Source: Candidatus Omnitrophota bacterium
GTDB lineage: Bacteria > Omnitrophota > Gorgyraeia > Zapsychrales > JANLHA01
DNA: 64,000 nucleotides
Direction of reading: 5' to 3'
Assembly: GCA_022711395.1 (NCBI GenBank)
Contig: JAKLFA010000003.1
Span: 290,509-354,508, forward strand
Under the pieces are notes generated by a model. That model did not search any database and was not told the origin of the DNA. It saw only the letters and a program-made list of their open reading frames with translations. Both the position numbers and the translations under genes were made by a program. Shown piece after piece: positions 5,763 to 24,099 of the stretch; the stretch's first letter is position 1, and every line of letters starts with the position of its first letter.

Positions 5763-6605
5763 ATGAATTTAGAAAACAAAAAACAGATCGCTATTATTTT
5801 GTTGGCTGTTGGTCTGGGCCTGGTGGCGTCGGTCTTGACGGCGCAGTTCGTTGATACGAAGATCGCCGAGCAACGGAAAGCGTTGAGCGAAGAGATCACT
5901 CAGACAAAAGTGGGGCCGCTGGTCCGCCAGATCCAGGAGCTTGAAAAGCAAATGGTCGATATGGCGGAAGAGCAAAAAAGGCTCGCTGCTATACGGGTCG
6001 CACAACCGGCTCCGACGGCTGAAGGCGGGGCGCCTGTCGAAGGAGCCTTGATCGCGGAAAAGGCGGTCAGCAAATCCACATTGGCGCTGATGACGCCTTC
6101 CGGAAAGCGCGCGTTCACGGTCATGATCGACTCGTTATCAGCGGTCGGAGGCATGATCAGCCCGGGAGATTTTGTTGATATCATTGTTGATGTCAAAATG
6201 CCAGACCCGACTGAAGGCGGAACAAAGGATGTTTCGTCGATCATTTTTCAGAACATACAGGTTTTAGCGGTAGATACGAACCTCAAAGCGTCTGGTCAAT
6301 ACGAACAGCAATCAAAAGCAAGGTCTTTGAACTTGACCTTTGCGCTCACGCCGGAGGAGGCGGGGCTGATGTCCTTTTTGCAAAAACATGGACAGATGCA
6401 GCTTTTATTGAGAGCTCCGGCGGAAGACGAGATCGAGCTTGTTGAAGTTGCTTCATGGAGGTCCTTGGCGGACTATGTGGCCGAAAAGCAAGGGACAGAG
6501 CTCGTGATCCCAAGGACAAAAGCGATCATTGAGCCGATCTCGACAAAGACGACAGAGGAAGTGAAGCCGTTTATTGAGATTTTTGAAGGCGGCCGGGCAA
6601 AGTAA
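5763..6605 (+). CDS. cpaB: Flp pilus assembly protein CpaB/RcpC-like
   Basis: 280 aa. One N-terminal TM helix and an SAF/CpaB-like core (GKRAFTVMIDSLSAVGGMISPGDFVDIIVDV). The gene sits first in the tad cluster. Confidence 0.65.
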   Translation: MNLENKKQIAIILLAVGLGLVASVLTAQFVDTKIAEQRKALSEEITQTKVGPLVRQIQELEKQMVDMAEEQKRLAAIRVAQPAPTAEGGAPVEGALIAEKAVSKSTLALMTPSGKRAFTVMIDSLSAVGGMISPGDFVDIIVDVKMPDPTEGGTKDVSSIIFQNIQVLAVDTNLKASGQYEQQSKARSLNLTFALTPEEAGLMSFLQKHGQMQLLLRAPAEDEIELVEVASWRSLADYVAEKQGTELVIPRTKAIIEPISTKTTEEVKPFIEIFEGGRAK

Positions 6606-6636
6606 AATTTTATGAGCATCTCAACAGGAGAAATGT

Positions 6637-8352
6637 ATGAGCCATACTCAAGTCTTTAAAAAACTGAGCTGTGTCCTGTTAAGCGCATGGCTGGCGATCG
6701 TCTGGTCGCTTCCTCCTTGCCAGGCGCAGGGATCGATCAATGAGGACATTGTTGACACCCGTGAGACCGACGAGATGTTTTTGTATCTCGGAGACCTGGG
6801 GACGCTGCGGGTCTATAATCTTACAAGGCTTGCCGTAAGCAACCCGGGGATCGTTGAGATCGTTAACACGGATGTGAACCAGATCCTTCTTGTCGGAAAA
6901 CAGGCTGGCGAAACACAGTTTTTCCTTTGGGACGAGTATGGCAAGCGGACGGTCATTATCCGGGTCCTTGAAAGGGATCTGGAGCTTATAAGACGGCGGA
7001 TTACGAAGCTTTTGGAGGCGGCCGAGATCGACGGGGTGATTTTGGATTATAATCCGCTGGAAGGGAAGATCCTTGCCCGCGGAAAAATGAACAAAACGGA
7101 AAAAGAGGAATTTGACAAGGTCGTTGAATCTTTTGGCGATTATTTGATCAACATGGTCCAGGAACAAAGCGATCTGATACAGATTGATTCACAGATCACG
7201 GAACTTAATAAGACGCTCAACGAGATTTTAGGGGTGAGCTGGAGCCAGTCTTTTAATGTTGAAGAAACGCTTCCTGGCTTTGACGGAAAAATTTATGATA
7301 CGTTCAGGATCGGGGACTTCGCCAGAACAACCAAGATTTTGGCGACAGTTAACGCCTTACTCACAACTTCGCAAGCCCGGAACCTGTCCCGTCCCAGCGT
7401 CACAGTTGCCGATGGAGAAGAGGCCAGCATTTTGGTTGGTGGCGAGGTTCCAATTACGTCAACGGTCGTGGGGGACGGGGGACAAACGGAAAGCGTTCAA
7501 TACAAGAGCTACGGCGTGGAGATGTCCGTTACGCCCAAGATCCAAGATGATAACAAGATCGAGATCACGCTTAGTGTTTCGGTGCGGGATGTTGATAGCG
7601 GGACGGGAAACACAACATCGTTTGCAACAACAACAGCGGACACCAAGGTCCTTTTAGATGACGGCCAAACGATCGTGATCGCCGGCTTGATAAAACAAAA
7701 CGAGCTGTCCACTGAAAAGAAGGTCCCGTTTTTGCATAAAATACCGATCCTCGGGCTGTTTTTCAGGAATCGCGATTACAACAAAACCACGGACAAAGAA
7801 CTTGTGATCTCTTTAACTCCGCGTATTTTGAGACAGAAGAACAAGGAAAAATATGTTAAGTCGGAGAAACGGCCGGCTGAGGAGATCAAGGCTGCGGCTC
7901 CGTCTTCTGGTGAAGAGCAGCCCGCAGATGTTTTAAATGAAGAGACGGATGTGGCAGCGGGATCCGAGATGGAGTTTTCAAATGAAACGGTAGATCTGGA
8001 GGCCATGCCGCAGATCTTATCCGAGGATGTTGAAGAAGATGATGCCGACCTTGTAGCGGAATACGCCCGCAAGGTCCAGAACAAGATCGCCAGTAAGATC
8101 ACGTTTCCTTATGAGGCGATCGAACAGGGATGGGAAGGCACCGTGATCTTGTCGATCGTTGTTTTGAGCGACGGGACCCTGAATAAAGCAGATGTTCAAG
8201 AATCTTCGGGGCGCGCGATTTTCGACAAAGACGCCGTGAATACCGCAGAGATCGTTTCTCCATTTGATCCGTTTCCTGTGGATTTAGAGATGGAAGAAAT
8301 TGAGATTTCCATACCGGTGATCTACAGTCAACAGCTGACAAGTAAAGAATAA
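6637..8352 (+). CDS. cpaC: Tad secretin (CpaC/RcpA family) with C-terminal TonB-C-like domain
   Basis: 571 aa. Signal peptide. A pilus-secretin N-domain (LRVYNLTRLAVSNPGIVEIVN...) and a secretin core (VADGEEASILVGGEVPITS...VLLDDGQTIVIAGLIKQ...KVPFLHKIPILGLFF). The C-terminal ~90 aa resemble TonB C-terminus (YEAIEQGWEGTVILSIVVLSDGTLNKADVQESSG...). Confidence 0.75.
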   Translation: MSHTQVFKKLSCVLLSAWLAIVWSLPPCQAQGSINEDIVDTRETDEMFLYLGDLGTLRVYNLTRLAVSNPGIVEIVNTDVNQILLVGKQAGETQFFLWDEYGKRTVIIRVLERDLELIRRRITKLLEAAEIDGVILDYNPLEGKILARGKMNKTEKEEFDKVVESFGDYLINMVQEQSDLIQIDSQITELNKTLNEILGVSWSQSFNVEETLPGFDGKIYDTFRIGDFARTTKILATVNALLTTSQARNLSRPSVTVADGEEASILVGGEVPITSTVVGDGGQTESVQYKSYGVEMSVTPKIQDDNKIEITLSVSVRDVDSGTGNTTSFATTTADTKVLLDDGQTIVIAGLIKQNELSTEKKVPFLHKIPILGLFFRNRDYNKTTDKELVISLTPRILRQKNKEKYVKSEKRPAEEIKAAAPSSGEEQPADVLNEETDVAAGSEMEFSNETVDLEAMPQILSEDVEEDDADLVAEYARKVQNKIASKITFPYEAIEQGWEGTVILSIVVLSDGTLNKADVQESSGRAIFDKDAVNTAEIVSPFDPFPVDLEMEEIEISIPVIYSQQLTSKE

Positions 8353-8393
8353 AGCTTCTTGCGCTAATAAAAGCAACCATAAAAAGGTAGAGT

Positions 8394-10556
8394 ATGAGCG
8401 CGCGTATTATCACGATTTTCAGCAATAAGGGTGGGGTTGGAAAAACATTTACAACGGTCAACCTTGCGACGACGCTTGCCATGTCCGGAAAAAGGACCCT
8501 GTTGATGGACATGGATTTTCAGGCAGGGCATGATATGGCGCGCATGATGAACATGGTGCCGAAGTTTGCCTTGGTCAACCTGCTTTCTCAGATCGAGAGC
8601 GAAGAGAATTCTGAGATCATTAAGAAGTTCGTTATTTCGCATTCCAGCGGGCTGGATTTTTTGCCGGCCGTGATCCACGCAAAACAGATCGGACACATCT
8701 CGGCGGAGAATATCAAACCGTTCTTTAAACGCGCCGCGGAAATTTATGAGTATATTATTATCGATGCCGGAAAGGCGTTCAGCGAAACGATGCTGACCGT
8801 TCTGGACCATTCTAACCTTATTCTTTTGGTCGCCACGCCGGATGTTCTGGCTGTTTATCAATTGAAATGGTGCATCGATATGTTGCAAAGCCTGCATTTT
8901 CCTTTGAAGATGGTCAAGATTGTGCTCAATCGCGCGGAAAGCCATGGAGGGGTTGCGTGGCAAGAGGTTCGTGCGGCGTTGAATTGTGACATTTTCGGGC
9001 GCATTCCTTCTGATGGGCGGGCCGTGGGGATGGCCTTGAACCGGGGGGTGCCGTGTGTTATTGACAGCCCTAAGAGCAAGGTTGTGGAAGCTTTCAAACA
9101 GATGGCCAATGAGCTGAAGAACAGTAAGCTCTATATTGAAGCGGATACGCAGAAAAAAGTCCGGGAAAAGATGCAGTGGTCTTCTGGCCAGGATGATTTT
9201 TGGCAGAAGTTCGGGATCTCTCAGCAGCGCTCAAACATGTCGACGGCGTTTTCGAAGGAAGAGGACGAAGTCGTCGCGCTTAAGAAAAAGATCCACGAAA
9301 AGCTGGTTGCTCGTTTGAATGTTCAGGACCTGACCCCGGAAACGCTGAGCGATCCTAAAAGGGCGCTGGAGCTTAAAGAGACCGCAAGAAAAATCATCGG
9401 GGACCTGCTGATCGAAGAAAAGGGGGCCCTGATCGCGTCTCATGAAGAACGGGCCCGCATTGTCAAAGAGATCGTTGATGAAGCGCTTGGCCTGGGGCCG
9501 CTGGAAGAATTTTTAGCAGACCCGGACGTTACGGATATTATGGTCAACAGCCGGGATGAGGTGTATATTGAGAAACACGGGAAGCTTCTTTTGACAAACA
9601 GAAAGTTCATGTCGGAACAGCAGATGAGGGCGATCATTGACCGTATTGTTGCCCCGCTTGGCCGGCGTATTGATGAGTCCGTTCCTATGGTTGATGCCCG
9701 GCTTCCCGACGGGTCTCGTTTTAACGCGATCATTCCTCCGTTGTCTTTGAACGGCCCGATGATCACGATCCGTAAATTCGGGGTTGAGCGCCTTTCGCTG
9801 GAGGAGCTTCTCAAGAAATATGAAAGTTTCTCGAAGCCCATGCGCGATTTTTTGGAAGCCTGTGTTATTTCTCGGCGGAACATTATTGTCTCCGGAGGGA
9901 CGGGCGCCGGGAAGACCACCCTTTTGAACGTTATTTCTGAGTTCATTCCGGACACTGACCGCATTATTACGATCGAGGACGCCGCTGAGTTGAGATTAAA
10001 GCAACGGCACTGGGGGCGTCTGGAATCCCGCCCCAGCAACGTTGAAGGCAAGGGGGCTGTTACGATCCGGGACCTGTTTATCAATTCGCTTCGTATGCGG
10101 CCAGATCGGATCGTTATCGGGGAGTGCCGCGGGCCGGAAGTTTTGGATATGCTCCAGGCCATGAACACCGGCCATGATGGATCTATGACAACGCTTCACG
10201 CTAACTCGACGCGGGATGTGGTTGTCCGCATGAGCTCCATGATCCTTTTAAGCGGGATCGAACTGCCCGTGCGCGCGATCTATGAAATGATCTCTTCTGC
10301 GATCGACGTAATCGTCCACATCGCCCGTTTTTCAGACGGGTCTCGTAAGGTCACGGGTATATCGGAAGTGGCTGGGCTTGAAAAAGACTTTCAGCTTGAT
10401 CTGCGGGATATTTTTACTTTTGAGCAAAAGGGGATGACCTCGGAGGGAATTATCCAGGGAGAGTTCTCGCCGACGGGTTATGTGCCAAAATGTTATGAAG
10501 ACATGAAGCGTATGGGCATCCATTTGGATGAGAGCATCTTCGCTCGCAAAAAATAA
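8394..10556 (+). CDS. tadZ-tadA: fused TadZ/CpaE-like ParA ATPase + TadA/CpaF secretion ATPase
   Basis: 720-aa continuous ORF. The N-terminus carries a deviant Walker A of the MinD/ParA type (NKGGVGKTFTTVNLA). The C-terminal half is VirB11/CpaF-like, with Walker A GGTGAGKTTLLN and the motifs ECRGPEVLDMLQAMNTGHDGSMTTLHANS. Confidence 0.85.
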   Translation: MSARIITIFSNKGGVGKTFTTVNLATTLAMSGKRTLLMDMDFQAGHDMARMMNMVPKFALVNLLSQIESEENSEIIKKFVISHSSGLDFLPAVIHAKQIGHISAENIKPFFKRAAEIYEYIIIDAGKAFSETMLTVLDHSNLILLVATPDVLAVYQLKWCIDMLQSLHFPLKMVKIVLNRAESHGGVAWQEVRAALNCDIFGRIPSDGRAVGMALNRGVPCVIDSPKSKVVEAFKQMANELKNSKLYIEADTQKKVREKMQWSSGQDDFWQKFGISQQRSNMSTAFSKEEDEVVALKKKIHEKLVARLNVQDLTPETLSDPKRALELKETARKIIGDLLIEEKGALIASHEERARIVKEIVDEALGLGPLEEFLADPDVTDIMVNSRDEVYIEKHGKLLLTNRKFMSEQQMRAIIDRIVAPLGRRIDESVPMVDARLPDGSRFNAIIPPLSLNGPMITIRKFGVERLSLEELLKKYESFSKPMRDFLEACVISRRNIIVSGGTGAGKTTLLNVISEFIPDTDRIITIEDAAELRLKQRHWGRLESRPSNVEGKGAVTIRDLFINSLRMRPDRIVIGECRGPEVLDMLQAMNTGHDGSMTTLHANSTRDVVVRMSSMILLSGIELPVRAIYEMISSAIDVIVHIARFSDGSRKVTGISEVAGLEKDFQLDLRDIFTFEQKGMTSEGIIQGEFSPTGYVPKCYEDMKRMGIHLDESIFARKK

Positions 10557-10910: not shown

Positions 10911-11177
10911 TCAAAAACTATCCCAATCGATATTGTTGATCGTTTGATTAAGCTCATCAAGCCATTTGTGACAGAATTTGCAAATGTGCGCTTCTTGCAG
11001 GATTTTTTCACCGCAAAAAATGCAGGGTTTTTTGTCAATGCTGGGGTAAGGGACATCTAGAAGGTCATCAATGATGAATTGATTGCAGTGGTGGCAGCGG
11101 TTGGTGTGTTCGTCGAGATGTTCGTAACAGTAGGGACATTTGAGCATAACGGACTCCTGGAATGAGCGTATAATCAA
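10911..11177 (-). CDS. small double zinc-ribbon protein
   Basis: 88 aa with two CxxC...CxxC pairs (CPYC..CHHC; CIFC..CKFC). It is convergent with DUF192, and the two stop codons abut. Confidence 0.45.
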   Translation of the reverse strand: MIIRSFQESVMLKCPYCYEHLDEHTNRCHHCNQFIIDDLLDVPYPSIDKKPCIFCGEKILQEAHICKFCHKWLDELNQTINNIDWDSF

Positions 11178-13028: not shown

Positions 13029-13226
13029 CTGGATATCAACAATTGATCTTTGTCTAATTCTCTGCCTAAGGTAGAGATTTTTCCGCGTAATACTTTGAGA
13101 TACAAGTATTTGCGGAGGCCGTGAAGAGCGGCCATATATGCCCACTCGGTTTTCTGCTTTAAGTTGCAAAAAGCGGGCAACGGTTCACCTGTAACACATA
13201 AGAAACAGGCGCGGAGAGGCTTGAAC

Positions 13227-13367
13227 ATGGTTTCAAAAATGGGACAAAGTTTAGTTGAATATGCCATCGTCGTGTCCATTGTGGCGGCCGCCATGGTTGC
13301 CATGAGTACTTATGTGTTCCGTTCGGTGCAGGCAACGCAACAGGCGATCCATGAGGAATTCCGATAA
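13227..13367 (+). CDS. flp: Flp-family pilin 1
   Basis: Class-III prepilin signal KMG|QSLVEYAIVVSIVAAAMVAM, with Glu at +5 of the mature peptide. SD ggagagg lies 8 nt upstream. The longer 13164 start is less likely. Confidence 0.75.
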   Translation: MVSKMGQSLVEYAIVVSIVAAAMVAMSTYVFRSVQATQQAIHEEFR

Positions 13368-13401
13368 AACTAAAAGAAGCAAACTTTAAGGAGGATTTAG
13401 T

Positions 13402-13596
13402 ATGTTTAAAAATAAACTCTTGAAGCGCCGCGGGCAAAGCACATTGGAATATATCGTGTTGGTTACAGCGATCATTGTTGTTTTGCTCATCTTCTTGAAT
13501 CCGAGCACGGGTAGATTTTCTACCTATTTGAACAGGGCCCTGGATTCAGCAGGCCAAGGCATGAATTTAATGTCTTGCCGTGTTTTTGCCAAGTAA
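13402..13596 (+). CDS. flp: Flp-family pilin 2
   Basis: KRRG|QSTLEYIVLVTAIIVVLLIF. SD aaggagg. Confidence 0.75.
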   Translation: MFKNKLLKRRGQSTLEYIVLVTAIIVVLLIFLNPSTGRFSTYLNRALDSAGQGMNLMSCRVFAK

Positions 13597-13610
13597 ATTT
13601 GTTATGGCAC

Positions 13611-13633
13611 GGCACGCCTTGGGCGTGTTTTTG
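13611..13633 (+). terminator. putative intrinsic terminator after pilin 2
   Basis: cacgcc-ttg-ggcgtg hairpin followed by TTTTTGG. Short stem, moderate confidence. Confidence 0.35.
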
Positions 13634-13670
13634 GCTCATAATGAATCTAAACGTTTAAGGAGGAAAAAAC

Positions 13671-14048
13671 ATGTTACAAACAATTTTAAAAAATAAAAGA
13701 GCGCAGCAGACCGCAGAATATGCTCTTTTGATCTCTTTGGTCGTTGCTGCTGTGGTTGCGATGCAAACCTATGCACAGCGCGCTCTGCAGGGACGCATCC
13801 GTCAAGGTGCGATTTACATGAAAAATCAAACGGATACTAAGTTTGATCCCACCGGTGCAGCCAGCACAAAGCTACAGTATGCGCCGTATTATTTGACATC
13901 AGAGTACCAGGTTACGAAAGATGAAAATACGGATGACTTTTATTCTAAGTCAAAAGGGTTTGGGATCGATCAGATTTCAAACACGACCAGAGACGCTGGC
14001 GGGTTTAAGGAAGAAAACTTCAACACCGGCGATACGTCAAATTGGTAA
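13671..14048 (+). CDS. Flp-like pilin paralog 3 (extended, 125 aa)
   Basis: KRA|QQTAEYALLISLVVAAVVAM, then the family motif QRALQGRIRQGA. SD aaggagg. Confidence 0.65.
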   Translation: MLQTILKNKRAQQTAEYALLISLVVAAVVAMQTYAQRALQGRIRQGAIYMKNQTDTKFDPTGAASTKLQYAPYYLTSEYQVTKDENTDDFYSKSKGFGIDQISNTTRDAGGFKEENFNTGDTSNW

Positions 14049-14087
14049 TATTAACCAAAGAGCTGAATTTTTTAAGGAGGATAAATT

Positions 14088-14411
14088 ATGTTTAAACGAT
14101 TAAGAAAAAGACGCGCGCAAAGCACCTTGGAATACGCGGTGTTGATTGTTATCGTCATCGGCGCGCTTTTGACTATTCAAACATATGTCAAACGCGGTAT
14201 CCAAGGCCGTTTGCGGCAAGCATCTGACGATATCGGCGATCAGTTTGATGTTGATATCAATATGAGCCGCAAGACGAAATTCCATTCCAAGACCAACGAA
14301 ATTTACAATGTTGGGACTTTGAACAGCGTCTTGATCGACAAAGAAACAACAAACGTTGTTTATAACGTGATCTTTACTGGAAACATGGATTACACATATT
14401 GGGGCAAGTAA
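14088..14411 (+). CDS. Flp-like pilin paralog 4 (107 aa)
   Basis: KRRA|QSTLEYAVLIVIVIGALL, then KRGIQGRLRQASDDIGDQFD. SD aaggagg. Confidence 0.7.
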   Translation: MFKRLRKRRAQSTLEYAVLIVIVIGALLTIQTYVKRGIQGRLRQASDDIGDQFDVDINMSRKTKFHSKTNEIYNVGTLNSVLIDKETTNVVYNVIFTGNMDYTYWGK

Positions 14412-14438
14412 TCCCTATATGTTAATTTGCAGCAACAA

Positions 14439-14487
14439 CAGGCTTACTCGGTCAGCCCGAAATCGGGTCGGGTAAGCCTGTTTTTTT
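14439..14487 (+). terminator. strong intrinsic terminator inside the pilin array
   Basis: caggcttac ... gtaagcctg stem with a nested cccgaaatcggg hairpin, followed by TTTTTTT (14481-87). Confidence 0.7.
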
Positions 14488-14521
14488 CCACAGCATCCAA
14501 GGACGTCAGGGGGCTGGAGTC

Positions 14522-14911
14522 ATGTTCAGGCGCAGTAAAAAACAATATGCACAAGCCGGAGTCGACTACGTTCTCATCTTTTTTTTGGTGACAGCCGCCG
14601 TACTTGCCATGTCTACTTACGTTAACAGGGCCATCCATGGCCGCCATCTTATGGTTCGCGGGTTTATGTATGATCAGGTCAATGCTGTTTTTCGAGACAC
14701 CACATTAAATCTATACGGAAATTTTGTTCGGGGTTACGACCCGTATTATTTAAAAGTGGAAAATGAACGCCGGCAGGATTCTGTGATCGTGGACACGTTG
14801 CAGGCCGGGGTTTATGGTGGGACGGTCCCTATAGCGAAGAAAGAATATTTGAACTATGAAACAGGAGCGGACTCTTTTTCTAACCAGCTTCCGCCAAAGT
14901 TTGCCAATTAA
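14522..14911 (+). CDS. Flp-like pilin paralog 5 (129 aa)
   Basis: KQYA|QAGVDYVLIFFLVTAAVLAM, then NRAIHGRHL. Confidence 0.6.
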   Translation: MFRRSKKQYAQAGVDYVLIFFLVTAAVLAMSTYVNRAIHGRHLMVRGFMYDQVNAVFRDTTLNLYGNFVRGYDPYYLKVENERRQDSVIVDTLQAGVYGGTVPIAKKEYLNYETGADSFSNQLPPKFAN

Positions 14912-14915
14912 GCTT

Positions 14916-15263
14916 ATGGAATATAAAGAATTAAAATATAAAGAAAGACAGAAGGCGCAGACATTTCTGGAGTATGTTTTGTTGTTCAGCATAGTTGTCG
15001 GGATCGTAATAGCGCTTTCTCCTTTGATGAAACGAGGGATACAGGCGACGGTGAAATCTGTGGCGGACCAGATCGGGCTTCAACAGTGCGCTGAACAGAA
15101 GGGCGGAGAGGACGGGAAAATTGATTTGGTTGATACGCGGGCGGACGTCAGAAAGAAAAAAACACGCATCGAGAGAGTGGGGAATTTAATGTATCAATAT
15201 GATGACGCGACGATTGTGGCGTCGCAACAGCTCACAAATTCGGGGTTTACCAAAGAATATTGA
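14916..15263 (+). CDS. Flp-like pilin paralog 6
   Basis: Internal ATG after the previous stop. QKA|QTFLEYVLLFSIVVGIVIAL, then KRGIQATVKS. Confidence 0.6.
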   Translation: MEYKELKYKERQKAQTFLEYVLLFSIVVGIVIALSPLMKRGIQATVKSVADQIGLQQCAEQKGGEDGKIDLVDTRADVRKKKTRIERVGNLMYQYDDATIVASQQLTNSGFTKEY

Positions 15264-15274
15264 AGGAAAAGGCT

Positions 15275-15589
15275 ATGCTATCTCGAAAAGGACAGTCTGT
15301 GTTAGAGCAATCCATGATCTGGGTTATCATTATGGCGGCGATCCTGACCATCGGGGTTTATTTTAAGCGGGGCATACAAGGACGATGGAGGGCCGCTATC
15401 GACGATGTGGGCGATCAGTATGATCCGTATATGGCGGATACGAACCTTGTTTTTGGCGATCGCGCCAACGTGTTCACCAAGATCTTGACCATGGAAGACG
15501 GAAGCGGGTATTGGACGTTAAGGGAAGATTATACCAATTCTACAAGCACTAAAACGGGCTATGAATCTTTTGGTTCTTTTATACCGTAA
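15275..15589 (+). CDS. Flp-like pilin paralog 7
   Basis: RKG|QSVLEQSMIWVIIMAAILTIGV, then KRGIQGRWRAAIDDVGDQYD. SD aaggaaaagg. Confidence 0.6.
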   Translation: MLSRKGQSVLEQSMIWVIIMAAILTIGVYFKRGIQGRWRAAIDDVGDQYDPYMADTNLVFGDRANVFTKILTMEDGSGYWTLREDYTNSTSTKTGYESFGSFIP

Positions 15590-15594: not shown

Positions 15595-17172
15595 ATGGCG
15601 AGCATTATGAAAAAAAGATCTTTTTTTAAAACCCGATGGTTATCCGCTCAATCAGCCGCGGAGTTGGCGGTCTTTGGGGCTGTTGTCATGTTCGTGATCG
15701 CCAGCCTTATTAAAGTGGGCCTGAGCATGTCCCAAAGAACGAATAATCAGCTGCGCGCGTTCCGTTTAGCACTCCTGGAATCTTATCGGACCTCGGAGGG
15801 GCGATACGGCGACATCATTGCAGCGCGTAATTCAGCCAGCATCATGATCCTGGAGGACCGGCTCACTGTTGAGCCTGGCAGCAAACAGGGCACGAGCAAT
15901 CGCTTGCCATTCTTGGCCCAGGGGTCAGGCACGTTCAGCAAGAACATGTTATACCCTAAGGACATGGGCGAAAAAAGCAATTTCCCTTTTTATGATGTAT
16001 TTATCAACGGCCAACGGTTCCCTCTTATTATGGCTGATTTTATTTATTTGAATATTTCCGTTGCCGGCCAGGTAAGGATCCAGCGGCGCAGGGAAGGCCA
16101 GGCCTTTGGGTCGTCAGATCTTAATCCGGTTGTTTTGCCGCCGTGCAATACGGTTACGCCGCGGGCATGCTGGAACACGGGCGGCGGATTTGCGGTCTTT
16201 ATGCGTAAAAATTATAATTATCCGGCAAATGAACATTGGTGTTCCGGGACAGGAGGAGGCTCTTGCCCGAATCTTCCAGCCAAATGGAGGTTCGACCTGG
16301 ACCTTGACGGGGATTTAACGGATGTTGGCAATGGATATGTTCCGGAAAATTATACGTTAGATGCAGCCAATTCCGTAGAATTAAGAGATGAATTCATGTG
16401 GCAGTGGATCGCTGTGGCGGCTTATCCGGTCCCGGAAGAAGGAACCCCCCCGACGGTTTCAGTAACGTTTAGAGATGAAGCGGGAAGTCCGTTCACGGTC
16501 AACGGCGTGCTCGCCCTTCAGGTTGGGGAACGGGCGGATGTGGATAGCGATTTTCAGGATGAGACCGTGCATACGTTATCTTATGCCGGGGCCGCGGCAG
16601 GCGTTTTGTTGCCGACATCTTTTTTGGTGATGGATTCTCAAGAAGGCGAGATCGATTTTTCCTGGGACAACAGAAGCGACGAGCAGCTTAAGGATTTGGT
16701 CGCCTGGTGGACGGCTCATTGCACGACCGTTCCTTTGCCGGCCGGTTGTTCCGCAACTCAGCCGGTCAAGCCGGAGGTCGGCCTGCAGAAAGACGTGCGG
16801 ATGTATTCTTTCACGAAAGACGGCACGTATTTGAGGTTAGAGGAAGGGAAGCTGGTCATCCCGTCAACGAATCAGGTTGTCCGCAGCACGACCAAAAGGG
16901 ACCATGTGGATATCATTGAAAGAATTTTTTTGTTAAGCAATGACACGGACCGTTTTTGCGATGAAAGCGGCAGCCGTCGCGTCTGGGGAGGATCGACCTG
17001 GGCTTATAATAATGGAGTTTTCGGGCTTCCCAATCCGGTCGAGGCCTGCAATAATTGTTTTTCGGCGGAGAACGTGCAGAATACCTGTTTTGATGAATCG
17101 AGCAAAATTTTATATATCCGCAGCCGCTTGGACGATGTGCGCGGCCGAAAGTGGCAGACGATCTACAAGTAG
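15595..17172 (+). CDS. large TadE/TadG-like pseudopilin (525 aa)
   Basis: N-terminus SA|QSAAELAVFGAVVMFVIASL (Glu at +5), followed by a long Cys-containing periplasmic domain. Confidence 0.6.
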   Translation: MASIMKKRSFFKTRWLSAQSAAELAVFGAVVMFVIASLIKVGLSMSQRTNNQLRAFRLALLESYRTSEGRYGDIIAARNSASIMILEDRLTVEPGSKQGTSNRLPFLAQGSGTFSKNMLYPKDMGEKSNFPFYDVFINGQRFPLIMADFIYLNISVAGQVRIQRRREGQAFGSSDLNPVVLPPCNTVTPRACWNTGGGFAVFMRKNYNYPANEHWCSGTGGGSCPNLPAKWRFDLDLDGDLTDVGNGYVPENYTLDAANSVELRDEFMWQWIAVAAYPVPEEGTPPTVSVTFRDEAGSPFTVNGVLALQVGERADVDSDFQDETVHTLSYAGAAAGVLLPTSFLVMDSQEGEIDFSWDNRSDEQLKDLVAWWTAHCTTVPLPAGCSATQPVKPEVGLQKDVRMYSFTKDGTYLRLEEGKLVIPSTNQVVRSTTKRDHVDIIERIFLLSNDTDRFCDESGSRRVWGGSTWAYNNGVFGLPNPVEACNNCFSAENVQNTCFDESSKILYIRSRLDDVRGRKWQTIYK

Positions 17173-17182
17173 GAAGACGGTT

Positions 17183-17440
17183 ATGAGATCAAAAAGAGCG
17201 CAGGTAACGCTTGAATTCACAATGGCGATGATGGCGACGATCTTGCTGTTTGCCGGAATGATACGGGTGTTTTTATGGATCGGAAAAAGCATGATCGAAC
17301 AACGCAAGGCCCACGAGAGGGTTTTGATGACCGATTATAGCTCGGCTGGCGTGGCGGGCCCGCTGTATCAGCTTAAAGAGGATTTTTATACGCCGGCAAC
17401 GTTTGATGCTGCGGTCAGCAGCGATCTGTTTAAACATTAA
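17183..17440 (+). CDS. TadE-like pseudopilin (86 aa)
   Basis: KRA|QVTLEFTMAMMATILLFAGM. SD aggaag. Confidence 0.6.
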   Translation: MRSKRAQVTLEFTMAMMATILLFAGMIRVFLWIGKSMIEQRKAHERVLMTDYSSAGVAGPLYQLKEDFYTPATFDAAVSSDLFKH

Positions 17441-17464: not shown

Positions 17465-20400
17465 GTGATTCGATTCTTGCGAGAAACAATGTTCCATTCC
17501 ATCCGGAAAGCGTCTTTCAGACAAGGAGCTTCATCACTCCGTTCACAGTCAGGGCAGATCGGGATCATCCTGATCCTGCTGGCCGCTTTTGGGTTGTTGT
17601 TCTATGCGATCACGTTGAATTTTAACCGGGCCTCTGACTTAAAGACCCGGACCCTGATGGCGGCCGAAGCGTCTTCCGCGCTCACGGCGTCTTATTTGGC
17701 CGGAACGGCGGAAAAATTATCCCAGGAACATTTAAAAGGAGAAGCGGGATATTGCGATTCGTCAAGCTGGTTGGAGGCGGTATTTAAGATCATCCTGCTG
17801 TCGATCGTCATTGTTATCGCCATCATCATTAATATTATTCCAGGAGTTGGTTCGCTTGTCAGCGCGCTTTTGTGGGCAGTCGTTGTCGGCGCTATTTTGG
17901 CCATTGTGTTTACGACGATTTCCATTATTTTGCAGATCACCGTGGTTCAGCCCGGGATCACGTCCATGTGGAACGAAATGATGGCCAAGACCTTTAAGGA
18001 GATCGAGGACCAGGTCATTGAGCAGGGCATCCAGATCGCTATTCAGAAACTGGTCGATGACCCGATCGAGCTTCCTGACACACTGGATTTTGACAATGAC
18101 GGTGTTTATGTTGTTGTGAATGGCGGTGAGATCCAGGATGATGAAATTGTGGATTCATACGCGCGGTTCGCGCATTACAATACCCGCCGGCTGCAGGGGG
18201 TCGTGGGAACCCCGTCTTATTATGTGGATGAATTTTTGGCCCGCCTGGAAGACCTTGTTTATTTAATTCCGGGAGGGCCTTCGCCTACGGCTCCGGATTT
18301 GTGGGGGTTTGTGGATGGGCAGACCTTTATACCACCGATCGGAACATGCACGAACGATGCGTCTGTCTGCAATCCGTGCTGTTTTCCCGTGGCCGCGGCT
18401 TGTTGCGGCAGCTGTTCTGGCGATACACGCTGCACGGCCGGACTGCCTCCAGCGGATGTCCCGCCCTGTTGCGCTGTTGCGGCCTGCACGACAGAGGCGG
18501 ATCAGGCGACATGCGCGACGTCAAGGCCATCGTATTGCGGGGCGGAATATCCAGCCAAATGTTATCAGCGGAGCTTTTTGTATGAAGATGGTGACGCGAA
18601 TGACACTACGATCGAGGCATCGCGGGGATTACCGTTCATTTTTGATCCGTTCTATGAAGGGGCTGTTAACAATACAATGCACGCTGCTGGAGGCGCTGTT
18701 CGGATGATCTCATTCAGGGAATGGGTCGGCAGGGATGATGTGTCTGATGCGTATTATGTTGATCCCGAACCCAACGATTCAGTCAGGTGGCATTCGCTGC
18801 ACGCGGCGGCGATCGCGGACAACCGTCAAAAGATCGAAGACGGAGTGGCGACGGCAGCGTTAGCGTTTACGAACAGATTCGTTCTTTCTTTGCAGGACCG
18901 CTTCCGGGCCCAGGACGCCAGTGGGTTTTATATTTCACGGGGTGACGATCAGGTCGGTGTTTTTCCGCTATTCTATCGAATGAGGGACCAATTGGAATTT
19001 CCGACTTCTTTTCCGGGTGCGCATCATTTAGGGTGTTTGTGGTGGAATATTGCGGACCAGGCGTGCAATTACCGCACACTGTTCCGTCCTGTGGACCAGT
19101 TCACTCTTCCGTATTTGATCACCGCGGTCATTCAATACGGCGGACAAACGCTCACGGACAGTCTGGGCACGCCGCTTCGTTACGCGGATTATGCGGGAGA
19201 GCACGCCTTCATCGATATGGGATTTTATAACGCGCCCGATCGGGTGCGAAAAGGAGCCATCAACAGGCTGTTTGCCGCTGATGCTGTCTGTGCTGAAGTT
19301 GCGGCCAGGCCGACAGTGACCATGGCTGCTGTATCAGCATCGCAGAACGCCCGGACAAATATTAATTTTCCCGGGATTAAACAAGGAGCGGATTTCTATT
19401 GTTCGGCCAATTATCCGTATGATGTTGGGTGTTTAAAGCACGGAACGGGTGGATGCACCAGAACGCTTTGGTTTGAACGGATCAACGATGCGACAGGGGC
19501 CAAGGAAATGTATAGCCAGGTGTTTCCGGTGGACTGCGCTTGCGGAGAAGCCGGGTCAGCGCCTGCCGATAAGTGGCCGGATGATTTTCTGGACGCGTTC
19601 CATAAAAAGATCACGGAACTTAAGCTTTTGACCGCGGAATTGAGCGGCCTGAAGATGCGCGGGCTTTTGGTCTCGACATTTTCTGATTGGTATTTAAAGA
19701 TTGCGGACTGGATCGAGCCGGCCTATAACAAGGCCGCCTGTACCGCTAACAGCGCAAGCGTCGCGTGCAAAGAAACGGTGACGCGTAAGGAGCGCTGGGG
19801 CTACCTGTGGTCATTTCGAGAGCATTTTAGAGAGATCGCGCTTATTTTAAATGACTGGTTGAATGACCGGGACGAAGCAGGCGCGACGATGTCTTATCAG
19901 GCAGCCAATTGTTTTGATGCGTGGTGTTTACCCAACCCGGGCTGCACGATGCTGAGCGCCGAAGAGCGGCTGGGATATGATAATAACGGCGACAATCTTT
20001 ATAATGCCAATGATAACGGGCTTACAGCTGTTATAAAATGTATGGATTGGGCGTCAACCGCTGTGACGAACGACCTTACGTATTCTGCAGCGGTCCCGCC
20101 TCCGCGAAACAACAATCCGCAGCTTTTAAAGGACGCCAGCGGCAATAATTATGTGGGGATCAAAGGGAAATACCAGGCGTGTCTCGAGAACTGCGGCACG
20201 CAATATTGCGATGATCTTCCGCGGCCGTTCGTTCCATCGTATGAGGTCGATAAATCGATCACTGCCGGAGCGGACTGGAGGATATTATCAACGCCAACGA
20301 TCCCCGCGGCGGCCGGGGACGCTGTTTATTTGGGCACGTATAAAAAGTGCCTGCGTTCATTGACGGTCGCTCAGTGCACGGCCAACACGGCCGCGATCGA

Positions 20401-21889
20401 CGAATGTCCGGACGCTCCCGGTTATATCGCGCCTGACGGGCAGTATACCGCGCTGATCCAGTCTTTGACGAATCTTTGCCCGACGGCGACCTTTGTTCCG
20501 ACAACCCAGACCTGCCATGATGGAAGCACGTTGCTGGTGGACTGCACGACCCCTCAGACCCAGATCGATTCCTGCATGAGGCATCTTTTAAACTCTTGCC
20601 AGTGGATCGTGCCGGGACAGACCTCGCCATTTTATAACAATTTGATCGCTACAACGGATTGCGCGCAAGCCATTGGCGCCAACCCGGAGACGCCCTACCG
20701 GCAATGGTTAAAGGCCAATATCATGGTCGCGGATCCTTTTGTGAATAAACTTACTATGCGGAAAAACAGCCTGTCTTTGCGGAGGCTGCAGATGATCGAG
20801 GCCAGAGATAAATTTAATGAGGCTTACAATCGGATCACGGAGTTCCTTGATAATGGGACGCCTTTTGACACCCCCGCGGCGGATATCGCCCCGACCAATT
20901 GTCAGGCTGATCTGGGGGCCGGTTATCAGTTGTCGCTGTCCCCGACCCCGGCCGGGTATGCGCGGTCAAATTCTTTGTATACCAGCACAGTGGCTCCCTG
21001 CGCGCCGAGGTTTCCGTATAACCCGACGCAGACCATAACATATCATGACGCAAGCTTCACGGGCACGAATCAGGATTCTCCATCTGAGATGCTGATCGAC
21101 GCGCAGGAAGCAGAGAAGACCTCTGACGCGCTTGCGGCCTTCGCGATCTATGTCTGGCGGGGAAATCCGGATGATGACCCTGATTGGTCCGATGGGGCGA
21201 ATGTTCAGAATGACGGCCTTCTGCATGCCGTCAAAGTCGAGGCTAGGATCCCCCGGCGATGCATGGGGCTGTGTGATTACGCCGGAACAGGGCCGATGGA
21301 TTGGCCCAAGATCGAAACATACACCACGGGGTTTTTGGGGAGCACGCGCTGTTATGAATTGCGGAATCATTTTGGGATGACCAAGGCGCGCGTCATACGG
21401 TTTGATCAATCACCGAACATCTCGAAATTCAAGCTGTTTAACAAGATCCCGTTTTCTCTGCCGAACTTCTCGCATCCGGCGGTGGTCCATGGGCAGAACA
21501 TAACAGGCGGCGATATTTTTGATAAATGCGCGATGCATATTGATCCGCTGATCGAGGATTTGATCGCCCGGAACAGTCCGCCAAAGGTGCCGGCTGTGCC
21601 CATTTATTTGAGGCAGGGCTTCATGATCAATTGGCAACCGAAGTATATATTGACAGATCCGCCGGCAGGACCGCAGTATGAGCAGGACAGAAAAGAAAAA
21701 GCCTGCTGGGAAGCTGTCCATGAGATCTTGCGATACGGCGTGCAGAGCGCCAGCTGCGCGAACTATTACTGGGGCGGCTCAGGCGGGGCCCTTTACGGGA
21801 ACCAGGGCATGCGGGTGAAGTTCACGTCGTGCAATCAAACGTTCATTGAGTCGGGAGACATGGTCGCCCCACACAATATTCCCGAATAA
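17465..21889 (+). CDS. 1474-aa cysteine-rich pilus-associated protein (TadG/tip-adhesin-like?)
   Basis: GTG start (an alternative ATG lies at 17489). N-terminal hydrophobic segment GQIGIILILLAAFGLLFYAITL. A poly-Cys patch (CNPCCFPVAAACCGSCSGDTRC...PPCCAVAAC) sits at about 18340-18560. The gene is embedded between pseudopilins and flp/tadBC. Confidence 0.7.
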   Translation: MIRFLRETMFHSIRKASFRQGASSLRSQSGQIGIILILLAAFGLLFYAITLNFNRASDLKTRTLMAAEASSALTASYLAGTAEKLSQEHLKGEAGYCDSSSWLEAVFKIILLSIVIVIAIIINIIPGVGSLVSALLWAVVVGAILAIVFTTISIILQITVVQPGITSMWNEMMAKTFKEIEDQVIEQGIQIAIQKLVDDPIELPDTLDFDNDGVYVVVNGGEIQDDEIVDSYARFAHYNTRRLQGVVGTPSYYVDEFLARLEDLVYLIPGGPSPTAPDLWGFVDGQTFIPPIGTCTNDASVCNPCCFPVAAACCGSCSGDTRCTAGLPPADVPPCCAVAACTTEADQATCATSRPSYCGAEYPAKCYQRSFLYEDGDANDTTIEASRGLPFIFDPFYEGAVNNTMHAAGGAVRMISFREWVGRDDVSDAYYVDPEPNDSVRWHSLHAAAIADNRQKIEDGVATAALAFTNRFVLSLQDRFRAQDASGFYISRGDDQVGVFPLFYRMRDQLEFPTSFPGAHHLGCLWWNIADQACNYRTLFRPVDQFTLPYLITAVIQYGGQTLTDSLGTPLRYADYAGEHAFIDMGFYNAPDRVRKGAINRLFAADAVCAEVAARPTVTMAAVSASQNARTNINFPGIKQGADFYCSANYPYDVGCLKHGTGGCTRTLWFERINDATGAKEMYSQVFPVDCACGEAGSAPADKWPDDFLDAFHKKITELKLLTAELSGLKMRGLLVSTFSDWYLKIADWIEPAYNKAACTANSASVACKETVTRKERWGYLWSFREHFREIALILNDWLNDRDEAGATMSYQAANCFDAWCLPNPGCTMLSAEERLGYDNNGDNLYNANDNGLTAVIKCMDWASTAVTNDLTYSAAVPPPRNNNPQLLKDASGNNYVGIKGKYQACLENCGTQYCDDLPRPFVPSYEVDKSITAGADWRILSTPTIPAAAGDAVYLGTYKKCLRSLTVAQCTANTAAIDECPDAPGYIAPDGQYTALIQSLTNLCPTATFVPTTQTCHDGSTLLVDCTTPQTQIDSCMRHLLNSCQWIVPGQTSPFYNNLIATTDCAQAIGANPETPYRQWLKANIMVADPFVNKLTMRKNSLSLRRLQMIEARDKFNEAYNRITEFLDNGTPFDTPAADIAPTNCQADLGAGYQLSLSPTPAGYARSNSLYTSTVAPCAPRFPYNPTQTITYHDASFTGTNQDSPSEMLIDAQEAEKTSDALAAFAIYVWRGNPDDDPDWSDGANVQNDGLLHAVKVEARIPRRCMGLCDYAGTGPMDWPKIETYTTGFLGSTRCYELRNHFGMTKARVIRFDQSPNISKFKLFNKIPFSLPNFSHPAVVHGQNITGGDIFDKCAMHIDPLIEDLIARNSPPKVPAVPIYLRQGFMINWQPKYILTDPPAGPQYEQDRKEKACWEAVHEILRYGVQSASCANYYWGGSGGALYGNQGMRVKFTSCNQTFIESGDMVAPHNIPE

Positions 21890-21930: not shown

Positions 21931-22308
21931 ATGATGATATGGAGAAAAAAAAGAAGTCGGCGCGGCACGACCGCCATTGAATACGCGGCTTTGGTCACGA
22001 TGCTGCTGTTCGCGTTTTGGATCGGGCTGCGGGGGTATATCCAGCGGGGCATGCAGGGCCGCTGGAAAGCCGCAGGCGACACTTTCGGACAGGGCAAGCA
22101 GTATGAGCCGTTGGGAACAAACGCCGTCGGCAGGACCAGTGAATGTTTTTATTCGGACCTGATCAATCCATCGACCGGGGTCCGCGTTCGTGAATGGGTC
22201 GACCTGACGTGTTTTGAAACAAACTGCAATTGCACGCTGGAAAGCGACGCCAGCACATATTCTACCGTCTGTATACAATGTTTGAGGAACTGTGACTGCG
22301 TGTTTTAA
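21931..22308 (+). CDS. Flp-like pilin paralog 8 with an 8-Cys C-terminal module
   Basis: RRG|TTAIEYAALVTMLLFAFWIGL, then QRGMQGRWKAAGDTFGQGKQYE, then C..C.NCNC...C.QC..NCDC. Confidence 0.6.
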   Translation: MMIWRKKRSRRGTTAIEYAALVTMLLFAFWIGLRGYIQRGMQGRWKAAGDTFGQGKQYEPLGTNAVGRTSECFYSDLINPSTGVRVREWVDLTCFETNCNCTLESDASTYSTVCIQCLRNCDCVF

Positions 22309-22341: not shown

Positions 22342-23199
22342 ATGTTCGTTCTCGCGTTATTTTTCTTTTTTACAACCTGCGTGATCGTTGGGTATTGGAT
22401 CCTGCCGTCAGCGTATCGTCAAACAGTCGCTTTAAATCAAAAAAGGGCCCATCAGCTTTCTTCTAAACTGGAGAGGGTCATTCCCCGGGCCCAGATCCGT
22501 CAAGTGGTCCAGATGTATCTGCTCGCCCCGCTTCTTCTGGGCGGGCTTTTCTTTGTTTTCTTTCCGCAAAAAATGCAGGTTTACGGTGCCGTGGCGGGGG
22601 TCGTGCTCGGTTTTATTTTTCCGTCGATCTACACGCGATTTTTGATCGCGTCCAATAAAAAGAAATTTTCTGATCAGCTGATCGATGTGCTGATGATCAT
22701 GTCCAGCTCGTTCCGCGGGGGGTTAAGCTTGATGCAGTCGATGGAGGCGGTCACGGAGGAGATGAGCGACCCCGCCAATCAGGAGTTCTCCACTGTCCTG
22801 GGGGAAAATAAAATGGGCGTTTCGTTGGAAGAATCGCTGGAACATTTATACAATCGTCAACCGTCGTCGTCGTTGCAGCAGATGATCACGGCGATCCTTC
22901 TGGCCAGAGAGACCGGCGGTAACCTGCCGGCCATTTTTCAGCGTATCGTTGAGGTCATCCGCCAGCGGAAGCGGATCCAGGGGCAGATCGACACTCTGAC
23001 CCTTCAGGGAAAGATCCAGGGCGTGGTCATGGCGGCGTTGCCGATCGTCTTTTTCGGGTGGGTTTCAGGGATCAATCCGGACCATTTTAAGATCATGTAT
23101 GACACGCCGGTTGGAAGGAACCTGCTGGTCGCCTCGTTTCTGCTCGAAGTGGTCGGGGCGTATATGATATGGCAGATCAGTTCATTGAAGGATTTTTAA
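22342..23199 (+). CDS. tadB: Flp pilus assembly inner-membrane protein TadB (T2SSF domain)
   Basis: 285 aa. TM helices and a GspF-like domain (LIDVLMIMSSSFRGGLSLMQSMEAV...LQQMITAILLARETGGNL). Confidence 0.8.
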   Translation: MFVLALFFFFTTCVIVGYWILPSAYRQTVALNQKRAHQLSSKLERVIPRAQIRQVVQMYLLAPLLLGGLFFVFFPQKMQVYGAVAGVVLGFIFPSIYTRFLIASNKKKFSDQLIDVLMIMSSSFRGGLSLMQSMEAVTEEMSDPANQEFSTVLGENKMGVSLEESLEHLYNRQPSSSLQQMITAILLARETGGNLPAIFQRIVEVIRQRKRIQGQIDTLTLQGKIQGVVMAALPIVFFGWVSGINPDHFKIMYDTPVGRNLLVASFLLEVVGAYMIWQISSLKDF

Positions 23200-23217
23200 G
23201 AATCAAAAAGGAGCGGT

Positions 23218-24099
23218 ATGTTTTTTATCGCGGTCTTATTATGGTTTTTGTGCGCCTTTAGTTTTGTCCTGGGGCTGTTCCCCTTGGAAATGGAGGCCCG
23301 TCCGACATTGCAGGCCTTCGGTTATGAACTGCGTCCGACGAAGAAAAGAAAAAATCCTCTGGCGATCGTCCGGTCGGTTGCGATGTTCAACAGACCCTTC
23401 GTCGGTTCCGGGCAGTTGCGCGAAAAGATCCTGCGCGAACTTTCGATGGCGCATGTCAATTTAACGCCTGAGGAATTCTGGCTGTTCAAAGAGATCTCGA
23501 TCGTCGCGATGCTTATCTTTACGTATCCTTTGGTCGAGCCTGATTATATGGTCATCTGGCTTCTTTTGTGCGTGTTTTTTGGATACATGCTTCCGGAATA
23601 CTGGCTGCGCGGAAAGATCAAAAAGGTCAAGGGGATCATCATGAAAGAACTTCCCGACGCTGTTGATCTTTTGGGGCTGTGCGTCAACGCGGGGCTGGAT
23701 TTTATGCTGGCGCTGAAGTGGGTCGTTGAAAAGTCTCCGCCTTCGGTCATGGTCAGCGAGCTTAATATTTTGCTTCAGGAGATCAACGTTGGGAAGACCC
23801 GACGAGATGCTTTAAAGGCCCTTTCAGCCAAATATGATCTTGCGGACCTTGCGACCTTTACGCGGACCCTGATCCAGGCCGACAAGATGGGGACATCGGT
23901 CTCAGAAGCCTTGACCATCCTTTCAGAAGACATGCGTCTTGCCCGGTATCGACGGGGTGAGCAGCTTGCCATGAAGGCGCCTATGAAGCTTCTGGTGCCT
24001 CTTTTGTTCTTTATTTTCCCGGTTGTTGGTATCCTGGTCGGCGGACCGATCTTTATTCAGTTCATGACAGAAAACCCCATGAGCCGCATGACAGGATAG
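23218..24099 (+). CDS. tadC: Flp pilus assembly inner-membrane protein TadC (T2SSF domain)
   Basis: 293 aa. GspF-like domain (LPDAVDLLGLCVNAGLDFMLALKWV...TLIQADKMGTSVSEAL). Confidence 0.8.
   Translation: MFFIAVLLWFLCAFSFVLGLFPLEMEARPTLQAFGYELRPTKKRKNPLAIVRSVAMFNRPFVGSGQLREKILRELSMAHVNLTPEEFWLFKEISIVAMLIFTYPLVEPDYMVIWLLLCVFFGYMLPEYWLRGKIKKVKGIIMKELPDAVDLLGLCVNAGLDFMLALKWVVEKSPPSVMVSELNILLQEINVGKTRRDALKALSAKYDLADLATFTRTLIQADKMGTSVSEALTILSEDMRLARYRRGEQLAMKAPMKLLVPLLFFIFPVVGILVGGPIFIQFMTENPMSRMTG

Follow-up and report, generated by a model that had tools for sequence, protein, structure and literature searches.

Genes and features of the locus

The present study examines a gene for a large cysteine-rich protein in a stretch of 64,000 nucleotides, here called the window, from contig JAKLFA010000003.1 of a Candidatus Omnitrophota bacterium. 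The gene lies at 17465..21889 on the plus strand, where the open reading frame (ORF), homologs, and synteny agree on a TadG-like product of 1474 amino acids (aa), and it sits in a Tad/Flp (type IVc pilus) gene cluster. An earlier reading of the same letters, referred to below as the original prediction, had given the ORF these coordinates and this length and had placed it among pilus genes; both points were borne out, the latter by Pfam matches to RcpC, a secretin, TadZ-TadA, TadB, and TadC. Two features did not figure in the original prediction, namely a second and a third hydrophobic segment of the protein (aa 104-160) and a giant gene directly 3′. The start codon is GTG, with an AAGGA-type ribosome-binding site upstream, and the opening MxxFL is common to the homologs. 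The ORF is a real, conserved gene; the possibility that it is not a gene at all was rejected on the evidence of a family conserved in hundreds of clusters and of 29 cysteines under purifying conservation.

Prepilin-type N-terminus and relationship to TadG

The N-terminus had been described as hydrophobic and pilin-like but lacking glutamate at position +5 (Glu5), and this description holds. A basic leader peptide (17465..17554, plus strand, aa 1-30), recognized by family conservation, ends at a prepilin-peptidase-type site, G30-Q31, which reads G30-QIGII. Among 128 family members, the residue at -1 was G in 124 and A in 4, the residue at +1 was Q in 125, and the residue at +5 was I, V, L, M, or A in every one and never E or D. 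G(-1) and Q(+1) were invariant columns in both alignment A1 and alignment A4, and leaders across the family had a median length of 25 aa, with as few as 5, and a median net charge of +5. Of the ten further pilin-like genes at this locus, all but one also carry a [GA]-Q site, the exception being the gene for a 125-aa pilin, with G-T, and an acidic residue occupies +5 in the Flp genes and in the 525-aa and 85-aa proteins encoded just upstream. The sites of these two upstream genes are retained across loci: of the ortholog ORFs recovered, almost every one of 36 for the 525-aa gene has a [GA]Qxx.EL motif, and almost every one of 37 for the 85-aa gene has a [GA]Q...EF motif. Plasmid tad loci showed a similar division, in that two genuine TadG proteins of PF13400 encoded there are without Glu5 and the TadE proteins beside them have it.

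A TadG-type N-terminal module was delimited with hhalign at 17531..17677 (plus strand, aa 23-71), including the hydrophobic alpha1N helix or first transmembrane (TM) segment (aa 31-54), again without Glu at +5. The family N-terminus aligned with a TadG profile built from 30 PF13400 N-termini at a probability of 77%, where 90-95% is usually taken as proof, with P 2.1e-5 and 49 columns in register, so placed that G fell on G, N52 on a conserved D, and K60 on K. The score of the real pair was 32.5-33.7, compared with a mean of 10.3 and a maximum of 16.3 for 100 column shuffles, 13.5 for a reversed profile, and 9.7 and 12.8 for the TM hairpin of the family itself. When a hidden Markov model of the family N-terminus was run against 943 ORFs, the Paraburkholderia TadG was the top non-self match at only 11.9 bits and the Skermanella TadG ranked tenth. 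The N-terminal module is therefore best described as a probable remote homolog of that of TadG, as judged from profile comparison, and not as a formal member of the Pfam family.

Hydrophobic hairpin, conserved motifs, and topology

Following the helix at aa 31-54 and a loop of about 50 residues with a conserved C97 there is a bilobed hydrophobic hairpin with a PGVGS turn (17774..17944, plus strand, aa 104-160; Kyte-Doolittle peak 3.0). All 55 of the members tested had at least two hydrophobic blocks before the QPG motif, and 54 of the 55 had none after it. In the 1474-aa protein itself, hydropathy likewise gives no hydrophobic segment beyond the hairpin. Topology was assigned from hydropathy; with the basic leader placed in the cytoplasm on that basis, aa 165-1474 and all 50 cysteines are predicted to be extracytoplasmic. 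The QPGITSMWN motif stands directly after the hairpin (17948..17974, plus strand) and was recognized by its invariance in A1, in which seven of its nine residues are invariant, among Q162, P163, G164, I165, T166, S167, W169, and N170; the pattern [VTI]QPGITS[MA]W derived from it was one of two conserved peptide patterns used in the genome scan described below. Further on lies an acidic loop, PDxxDxDxDG (18077..18103, plus strand; D205, D208, D210, D212, and G213), found by alignment, of which the four Asp are invariant in A1 and at least 90% conserved in the 112 sequences of A4. To judge by its motif this loop is a candidate DxDxDG site for binding Ca2+.

The last quarter of the protein has a recognizable layout. 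A long alpha-helix of about 55 residues (20687..20851, plus strand, aa 1075-1129, residues 5-59 of an AlphaFold2 model) leads into a C-terminal beta-rich domain (21032..21886, plus strand, aa 1190-1474), delimited from AlphaFold2 and alignment, with seven conserved cysteines and a conserved last strand, GMRVKF..C. Across the family a median of 6 residues follows the last conserved cysteine to the C-terminus.

Cysteine content

Fifty of the 1474 residues (3.4%) are cysteines, and the statement of the original prediction that many occur throughout the protein is accurate. Cysteine made up 0.05-2.3% of each of 11 further long window proteins checked for comparison, the product of the giant gene included, and the only richer protein among those checked was the neighboring 125-aa pilin (6.4%). 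The dense patch that had been reported lies at aa 292-366 (nucleotides 18338-18562, plus strand) and is dense indeed, but it holds 14 cysteines rather than the roughly 25 that had been counted. It is nonetheless non-random, since in 20,000 random placements of 50 cysteines the richest 75-residue window contained a mean of 6.9 and never more than 13. The whole protein has three CC pairs and two CxxC motifs. When the cysteine pattern was mapped onto the family, about half of the patch proved to be conserved, as a core of C295, C302-x2-C305-C306, C335/336, and C366, and seven cysteines (313, 314, 317, 323, 341, 350, and 358) proved to be lineage-specific. Across the family alignment as a whole, 29 cysteines are at least 80% conserved. 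An even number of cysteines was found in 101 of 135 members (75%; binomial P 3e-9, a value that is indicative only, as the sequences are related), a bias that fits structural disulfides. The disulfide-knotted structure suggested by the original prediction is thus well supported by the predicted placement of all cysteines outside the cytoplasm, by their conservation, and by their even counts.

An alternative explanation for the same cysteines is a metal- or cofactor-binding redox module, as the original prediction had also proposed, in which the patch would ligate metals or iron-sulfur clusters or would serve extracellular electron transfer. The clustering of CC and CxxC motifs in the patch would suit such a module, and Omnitrophota are often anaerobes in which disulfide formation is less assured. 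Nevertheless, we regard this explanation as extremely improbable. The protein contains no CxxCH motif and no metal-cluster motif, none of 36 family members matched a known metal-binding domain or a cytochrome or ferredoxin family, half of the patch cysteines are unconserved, and the cysteines are spread over 1200 residues rather than gathered in cluster-binding motifs, with an even-number bias that fits disulfide pairing.

Predicted structure

A full-length structural model was obtained with AlphaFold2 for P0047, a 1106-aa member that is 31% identical, from a 46-sequence alignment (predicted local distance difference test, pLDDT, 80.1; predicted template modeling score, pTM, 0.77). Its N-terminal part is modeled as a 62-residue helix with a short strand directly after it and then the hairpin at low confidence (pLDDT 39-52), and the QPG and acidic motifs are surrounded by helical structure. 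The cysteine-rich middle is long and mostly irregular but confidently placed, and a 70-residue helix (836-905) precedes a C-terminal beta domain with the conserved final strand. A separate AlphaFold2 model of the C-terminal 404 residues of the window protein (aa 1071-1474; pLDDT 70.8) showed the same helix-plus-beta-domain layout. Foldseek searches with the full P0047 model gave a best E of 0.35 against the PDB and of 0.25 against BFVD, and the C-terminal domain model gave a best E of 0.06 against the PDB with TM-scores of about 0.1. As modeled, then, the fold of the family is without a counterpart in the PDB.

Family and distribution

A word-indexed homolog search found only seven relatives, at 26-93% identity, even with a profile, but an exhaustive profile search with aa 1-1200 recovered 611 cluster representatives at E <= 1e-3 and 271 at E <= 1e-30. 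Among the 150 matches listed of the 611 representatives, lengths were mostly 1000-1700 aa. When a single genome was scanned for each species, 33 loci emerged. Every one of them lay in a metagenome-assembled genome (MAG) of Candidatus Omnitrophota, some of these MAGs having been deposited under the label "uncultured Planctomycetales". When 8 and then 36 family members were scanned with Pfam and NCBIfam, no meaningful family match was returned, and a profile search of PDB sequences returned nothing meaningful either, the antibody chain at E 0.22 being spurious. Weak matches to EI24, the Chlamydia Inc family, and SseC were likewise rejected as spurious, and all of them fell on the hydrophobic hairpin. 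No homology to non-pilus proteins emerged from Pfam, NCBIfam, PDB sequences, or Foldseek, and the pilus-associated reading of the original prediction stands. The family is large, previously unannotated, and restricted to one phylum. In term searches, a large cysteine-rich protein was not mentioned by West-Roberts et al., by a 2026 preprint on the same giant-gene locus, or in PMC10066038, and the word "cysteine" was absent from all of these.

The gene cluster

Reading from its 5′ end, the cluster consists of genes for a peptidyl-prolyl isomerase (Rotamase_2), RcpC/CpaB, a secretin carrying TonB_C, a TadZ-TadA fusion, a DUF192 protein, and a 560-aa protein, then seven Flp pilins, the 525-aa and 85-aa proteins, the 1474-aa protein, the 125-aa pilin, TadB, TadC, and the giant gene. 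By tblastn this gene order is the same in essentially every one of the 33 Omnitrophota loci. The fixed place of the 1474-aa gene bears on another explanation, in which its product has no relation to pilins and would be secreted as an effector, toxin, or adhesin, the gene merely hitch-hiking in the cluster. Such an origin would account for some 1300 residues without a fold or family match in a host lineage that is predatory. Even so, it seems very unlikely to us, given that in 33 loci the gene lies between the TadE/F-like genes and TadB/TadC and that its product begins with a TadG-like N-terminus and a prepilin-type site, not with a Sec or Tat signal peptide.

Among the neighbors identified by Pfam, RcpC/CpaB, the secretin fused to TonB_C, and the TadZ-TadA fusion ATPase together span 5763..10556 on the plus strand. 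The secretin is of the RcpA/CpaC type with a C-terminal TonB_C (6637-8352, plus strand; E 8e-15), and the following gene encodes a 720-aa fusion of a TadZ (ParA/MinD-like) part to the TadA/CpaF ATPase (8394-10556, plus strand). Such a fusion to TonB_C is unusual among Tad secretins, and homologous loci keep it. A double-zinc-ribbon protein with four CxxC pairs is encoded at 10911-11177 on the minus strand (DZR_2, E 5e-6, just below the Pfam cut-off); it is the only minus-strand gene identified inside the cluster, and a 78-aa counterpart was called in one homologous locus (L001). All other genes identified are on the plus strand, and G+C skew is positive across the whole window. The 560-aa protein (11304-12986, plus strand) is assigned to the cluster by synteny and is present in every homologous locus; it had no family match, only weak N-terminal matches to helix-turn-helix-like families (E about 0.003).

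Pilin genes make up much of the remainder. Seven tandem genes for Flp/class III signal pilins of 64-135 aa, each with a [GA]-Q...[ED] site, occupy 13164..15589 on the plus strand. They are followed by the gene for the 525-aa minor-pilin-like protein (15595..17172, plus strand), which has an A-QSAAEL site with Glu5 and 10 cysteines, and by that for the 85-aa TadE-like minor pilin (17183..17440, plus strand), which has MRSKRA-QVTLEF, also with Glu5. For the latter, a 166-aa ORF at 16940-17440 was rejected as an over-extension overlapping the end of the 525-aa gene, and the 85-aa model from 17183 was preferred because of its orthologs and the AQVTLEF site. Beyond the 1474-aa gene lie the gene for the 125-aa Flp-like pilin (21931..22308, plus strand), with a G-TTAIEY site and a C-terminal knob of 8 cysteines, and the genes for the TadB and TadC platform proteins (22342..24099, plus strand; T2SSF by Pfam). 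Altogether the cluster encodes 11 putative substrates of a prepilin peptidase. With the 125-aa protein as an eighth Flp-like pilin next to the seven Flp paralogs, the pilin repertoire is unusually large for one Tad locus.

The giant gene

The giant gene begins at 24586 on the plus strand, stays open for more than 13,138 aa, and runs off the window at 64000. Its product has a TM segment at the N-terminal end, a Peptidase_C39 domain (E 3.7e-10), and only 6 cysteines in 13,138 residues. Its first 1000 or so aa are homologous across Omnitrophota loci, and among the 33 loci a huge open frame runs off the end wherever enough downstream sequence remains; giant genes of 32,545, 10,568, and 12,177 aa were called in three of them. 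The G+C content of the giant gene is about 0.46-0.48 up to about 42 kb and then 0.49-0.57, which suggests modules of different origin or repeat content.

Omnitrophota are widespread and ultra-small, at least some are predatory or parasitic, and they carry the longest bacterial genes known (West-Roberts et al.; PMC10066038), which are almost always preceded by a Tad-like cluster (West-Roberts et al.). The locus upstream of these genes was reported as type II secretion-like (West-Roberts et al., bioRxiv 10.1101/2023.11.21.568195), was described again in the 2026 preprint, and was named a Tad complex by Seymour et al. (PMC10066038). That locus is a conserved cluster of GspD/E/F homologues, RcpC, a Rotamase_2 isomerase, and class III signal peptide genes immediately 5′ of a giant gene. 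The cluster in the window fits the giant-gene locus of West-Roberts et al., with the peptidyl-prolyl isomerase, RcpC, secretin, ATPase, TadB/C, and Flp genes and then the giant ORF. The locus is hence already known, and it is the family of the 1474-aa protein that is newly recognized. A Tad-type machine coupled to a very large effector-like protein was also seen on Moraxella bovis plasmid NZ_CP087831.1 (3838-18851), where a Tad-like locus (CpaB, a secretin-like protein, an ATPase, two TadB/C, DUF192, and TadE) lies directly 5′ of a gene for a 1516-aa RHS-repeat toxin.

Discussion

The patterns described here are, in our judgment, probably best explained if the 1474-aa protein is a Glu5-less minor pilin of the TadG/CpaL/GspK class that primes and caps the pilus, with a disulfide-armored head of about 1300 residues as its distal contact surface. 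This reading is favored because the protein has a TadG-like N-terminus, lacks Glu5, is paired with two minor pilins that have Glu5, and keeps its place in a conserved gene order; on the same grounds, a role at the tip is the best supported of the three (tip adhesin, metal-binding module, or disulfide-knotted stalk) that the original prediction had put forward. By analogy with known systems, the missing Glu5 would be the expected signature of a capping subunit and not an anomaly. It is also a reading with considerable precedent. TadG/CpaL acts as an analogue of PilK/GspK, and assembly depends on the strand at its very C-terminus (PMC13533445); CpaL has been modeled at the tip of the Tad pilus (PMC12607857); and KilN of Myxococcus is a large TadG-like tip pilin with unknown folds, in a system with interchangeable tips, the complexes of which are rich in predicted disulfides and are needed to kill prey (PMC12075869). 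In Bdellovibrio, TadG is needed for prey invasion and the locus has the same atypical TadZ-TadA fusion (B. bacteriovorus preprint), and within Omnitrophota, expression of the Tad locus has been recorded in the predatory V. archaeovorus (PMC10066038).

Assembly might then proceed as follows. The protein would enter the inner membrane in the orientation predicted from hydropathy, in which the basic leader stays on the cytoplasmic side, and a prepilin peptidase, presumably encoded outside the window, would cleave or at least recognize G30-Q31. As a subunit without Glu5 it would be the first, capping subunit and would form a priming complex on TadB/TadC with the 525-aa and 85-aa (TadF/TadE-like) proteins, after which the TadZ-TadA ATPase would polymerize the Flp pilins through the secretin, as is proposed by analogy with CpaJ/K/L, KilL/M/N, and GspI/J/K. 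The 525-aa protein is the proposed TadF/CpaJ-like partner, and the 125-aa Flp with its cysteine knob may act as an adapter, like KilK and KilO. The extracytoplasmic part of about 1300 residues would come to lie at the distal end, in contact with prey, substrate, or the giant protein, as a head with an irregular core held by perhaps 25 disulfides, the DxDxDG loop, the long helix, and the C-terminal beta domain. The cysteine patch on this head may build on a conserved CxxCC...CC...C core with additions that are in part specific to lineages, and its function would be structural and not metal-binding.

Several observations weigh against a capping pilin. The hairpin at aa 104-160, conserved after the pilin helix, is the feature least like a pilin; we know of no pilin with two extra membrane segments, and the extraction of three hydrophobic helices from the membrane into a fiber is hard to picture. 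At the gathering score of 22.3 bits, Pfam PF13400 matched none of the 8 and 36 natural members scanned, and the family consensus, in register from the Gly, reached only 12.6 bits (E 0.18), below that cut-off, where the positive controls reached 44.4 and 42.7 bits. No vWA/MIDAS domain was found by Pfam or NCBIfam in any member or among the Foldseek matches (the Skermanella TadG control gave weak VWA matches), so that of the resemblance to TadG or vWA-containing tip proteins raised by the original prediction, the TadG-like N-terminus stood and the vWA domain did not. Foldseek found no pilin or GspK-like match. Finally, there is no prepilin peptidase gene (Peptidase_A24/TadV) in the window. Tad loci are reported to lack one in Bdellovibrio as well (Bdellovibrio preprint).

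It is because the conserved hairpin is hard to extract into a fiber that a second explanation gains support, namely that the protein is a machine component anchored permanently in the inner membrane by three TM segments, with a disulfide-rich periplasmic domain as scaffold or anchor, and not a subunit of the fiber. Such a component might tether the base of the pilus, bridge the platform to the secretin-TonB_C protein, or serve the giant protein as a chaperone or docking site while it is exported. The three strongly hydrophobic segments are conserved family-wide, and none of the reference TadG proteins examined has the hairpin. The periplasmic domain of about 140 kDa may be too bulky for the secretin channel, and the linkage between its gene and the giant gene is strict. 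TadG in Aggregatibacter, moreover, is said to have been described in earlier work as an inner-membrane protein. On the other hand, a simple anchor would not readily account for the near-invariant G-Q site and the basic leader, the missing Glu5 beside two partners with Glu5 is the signature of a capping pilin, recent work puts TadG, CpaL, and KilN at pilus tips, and the hairpin, for which a membrane role is predicted, was modeled by AlphaFold2 at low confidence. On balance we consider a permanent anchor rather unlikely, though it is the main rival, and retain the capping and priming pilin as the preferred explanation.

A bolder version of the capping pilin would turn the hairpin from a difficulty into a function. 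Under it, the hairpin would be carried out on the filament and, like a harpoon at the tip, inserted into the envelope of the prey, much as secreted translocators and Inc proteins insert bilobed hydrophobic hairpins of their own into target membranes; the disulfide-armored head would dock or guide the giant protein. We think this improbable, but if it were true the Tad pilus would be physically coupled to the delivery of a protein of 10,000-30,000 aa. More generally, among the conserved components of the giant-gene-associated cluster the 1474-aa protein stands out as the largest and the most distinctive, and if it is indeed a tip or priming subunit it offers a concrete handle on whether the machine is an adhesive or killing pilus or a secretor of the giant protein. 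It would also extend the range of the TadG class to subunits of 1100-1700 residues without a vWA domain.

Comparison with known systems

The closest parallels are with TadG and CpaL. As in those systems, the gene belongs to a tad locus beside two TadE/F-like minor pilins, and the product is the largest of the three and the one without Glu5; its N-terminal G-hydrophobic helix is in register with PF13400 in the hhalign comparison at 77%; and its conserved last strand is reminiscent of the C-terminal strand required of CpaL for assembly (PMC13533445). In contrast, members of the Omnitrophota family are two to three times larger, at 1100-1700 aa versus about 420-630 aa, lack the vWA/MIDAS domain that is present in CpaL and in many but not all TadG proteins, contain 30-100 cysteines each, and have an extra hydrophobic hairpin. 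They fall below the Pfam threshold and occur in Omnitrophota only.

KilN of Myxococcus xanthus is, by its description, also a large TadG-like pilin of a predatory bacterium, with two long helices, a beta scaffold, loops, and no PDB homologue, and Kil tip complexes share with the present family the many predicted intramolecular disulfides (PMC12075869). The partners of KilN, which are short and extended minor pilins and Flp-like "adapter" pilins, may be compared with the products of the 85-aa, 525-aa, and 125-aa genes. KilN differs in being described with a single alpha1N helix and no extra hairpin, and the Kil system is coupled to an apparatus resembling a type III secretion system (T3SS*), whereas the Omnitrophota locus is coupled to the giant gene.

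More distant comparisons are also instructive. In common with the 1474-aa protein as read here, GspK, PilK, and PilX are each the only minor pilin of their set without Glu5 and the largest subunit, with an inserted non-pilin domain, and are proposed to act as cap or primer; even so, there is no detectable similarity to them in sequence or fold, and GspK has about 330 aa and a single hydrophobic segment. PilY1/PilC offers the likeness of a large tip-associated non-pilin head and of a possible Ca2+-binding acidic loop, PilY1 carrying an EF-hand-like site and the 1474-aa protein DxDxDG, but PilY1 is without a pilin N-terminus and has a beta-propeller, and no similarity between it and the 1474-aa protein was found. 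What is shared most widely is the composition of the set. The triad of a large pilin with Glu5, a short pilin with Glu5, and a very large pilin without it mirrors TadF/TadE/TadG, CpaJ/CpaK/CpaL, KilL/KilM/KilN, and GspJ/GspI/GspK.

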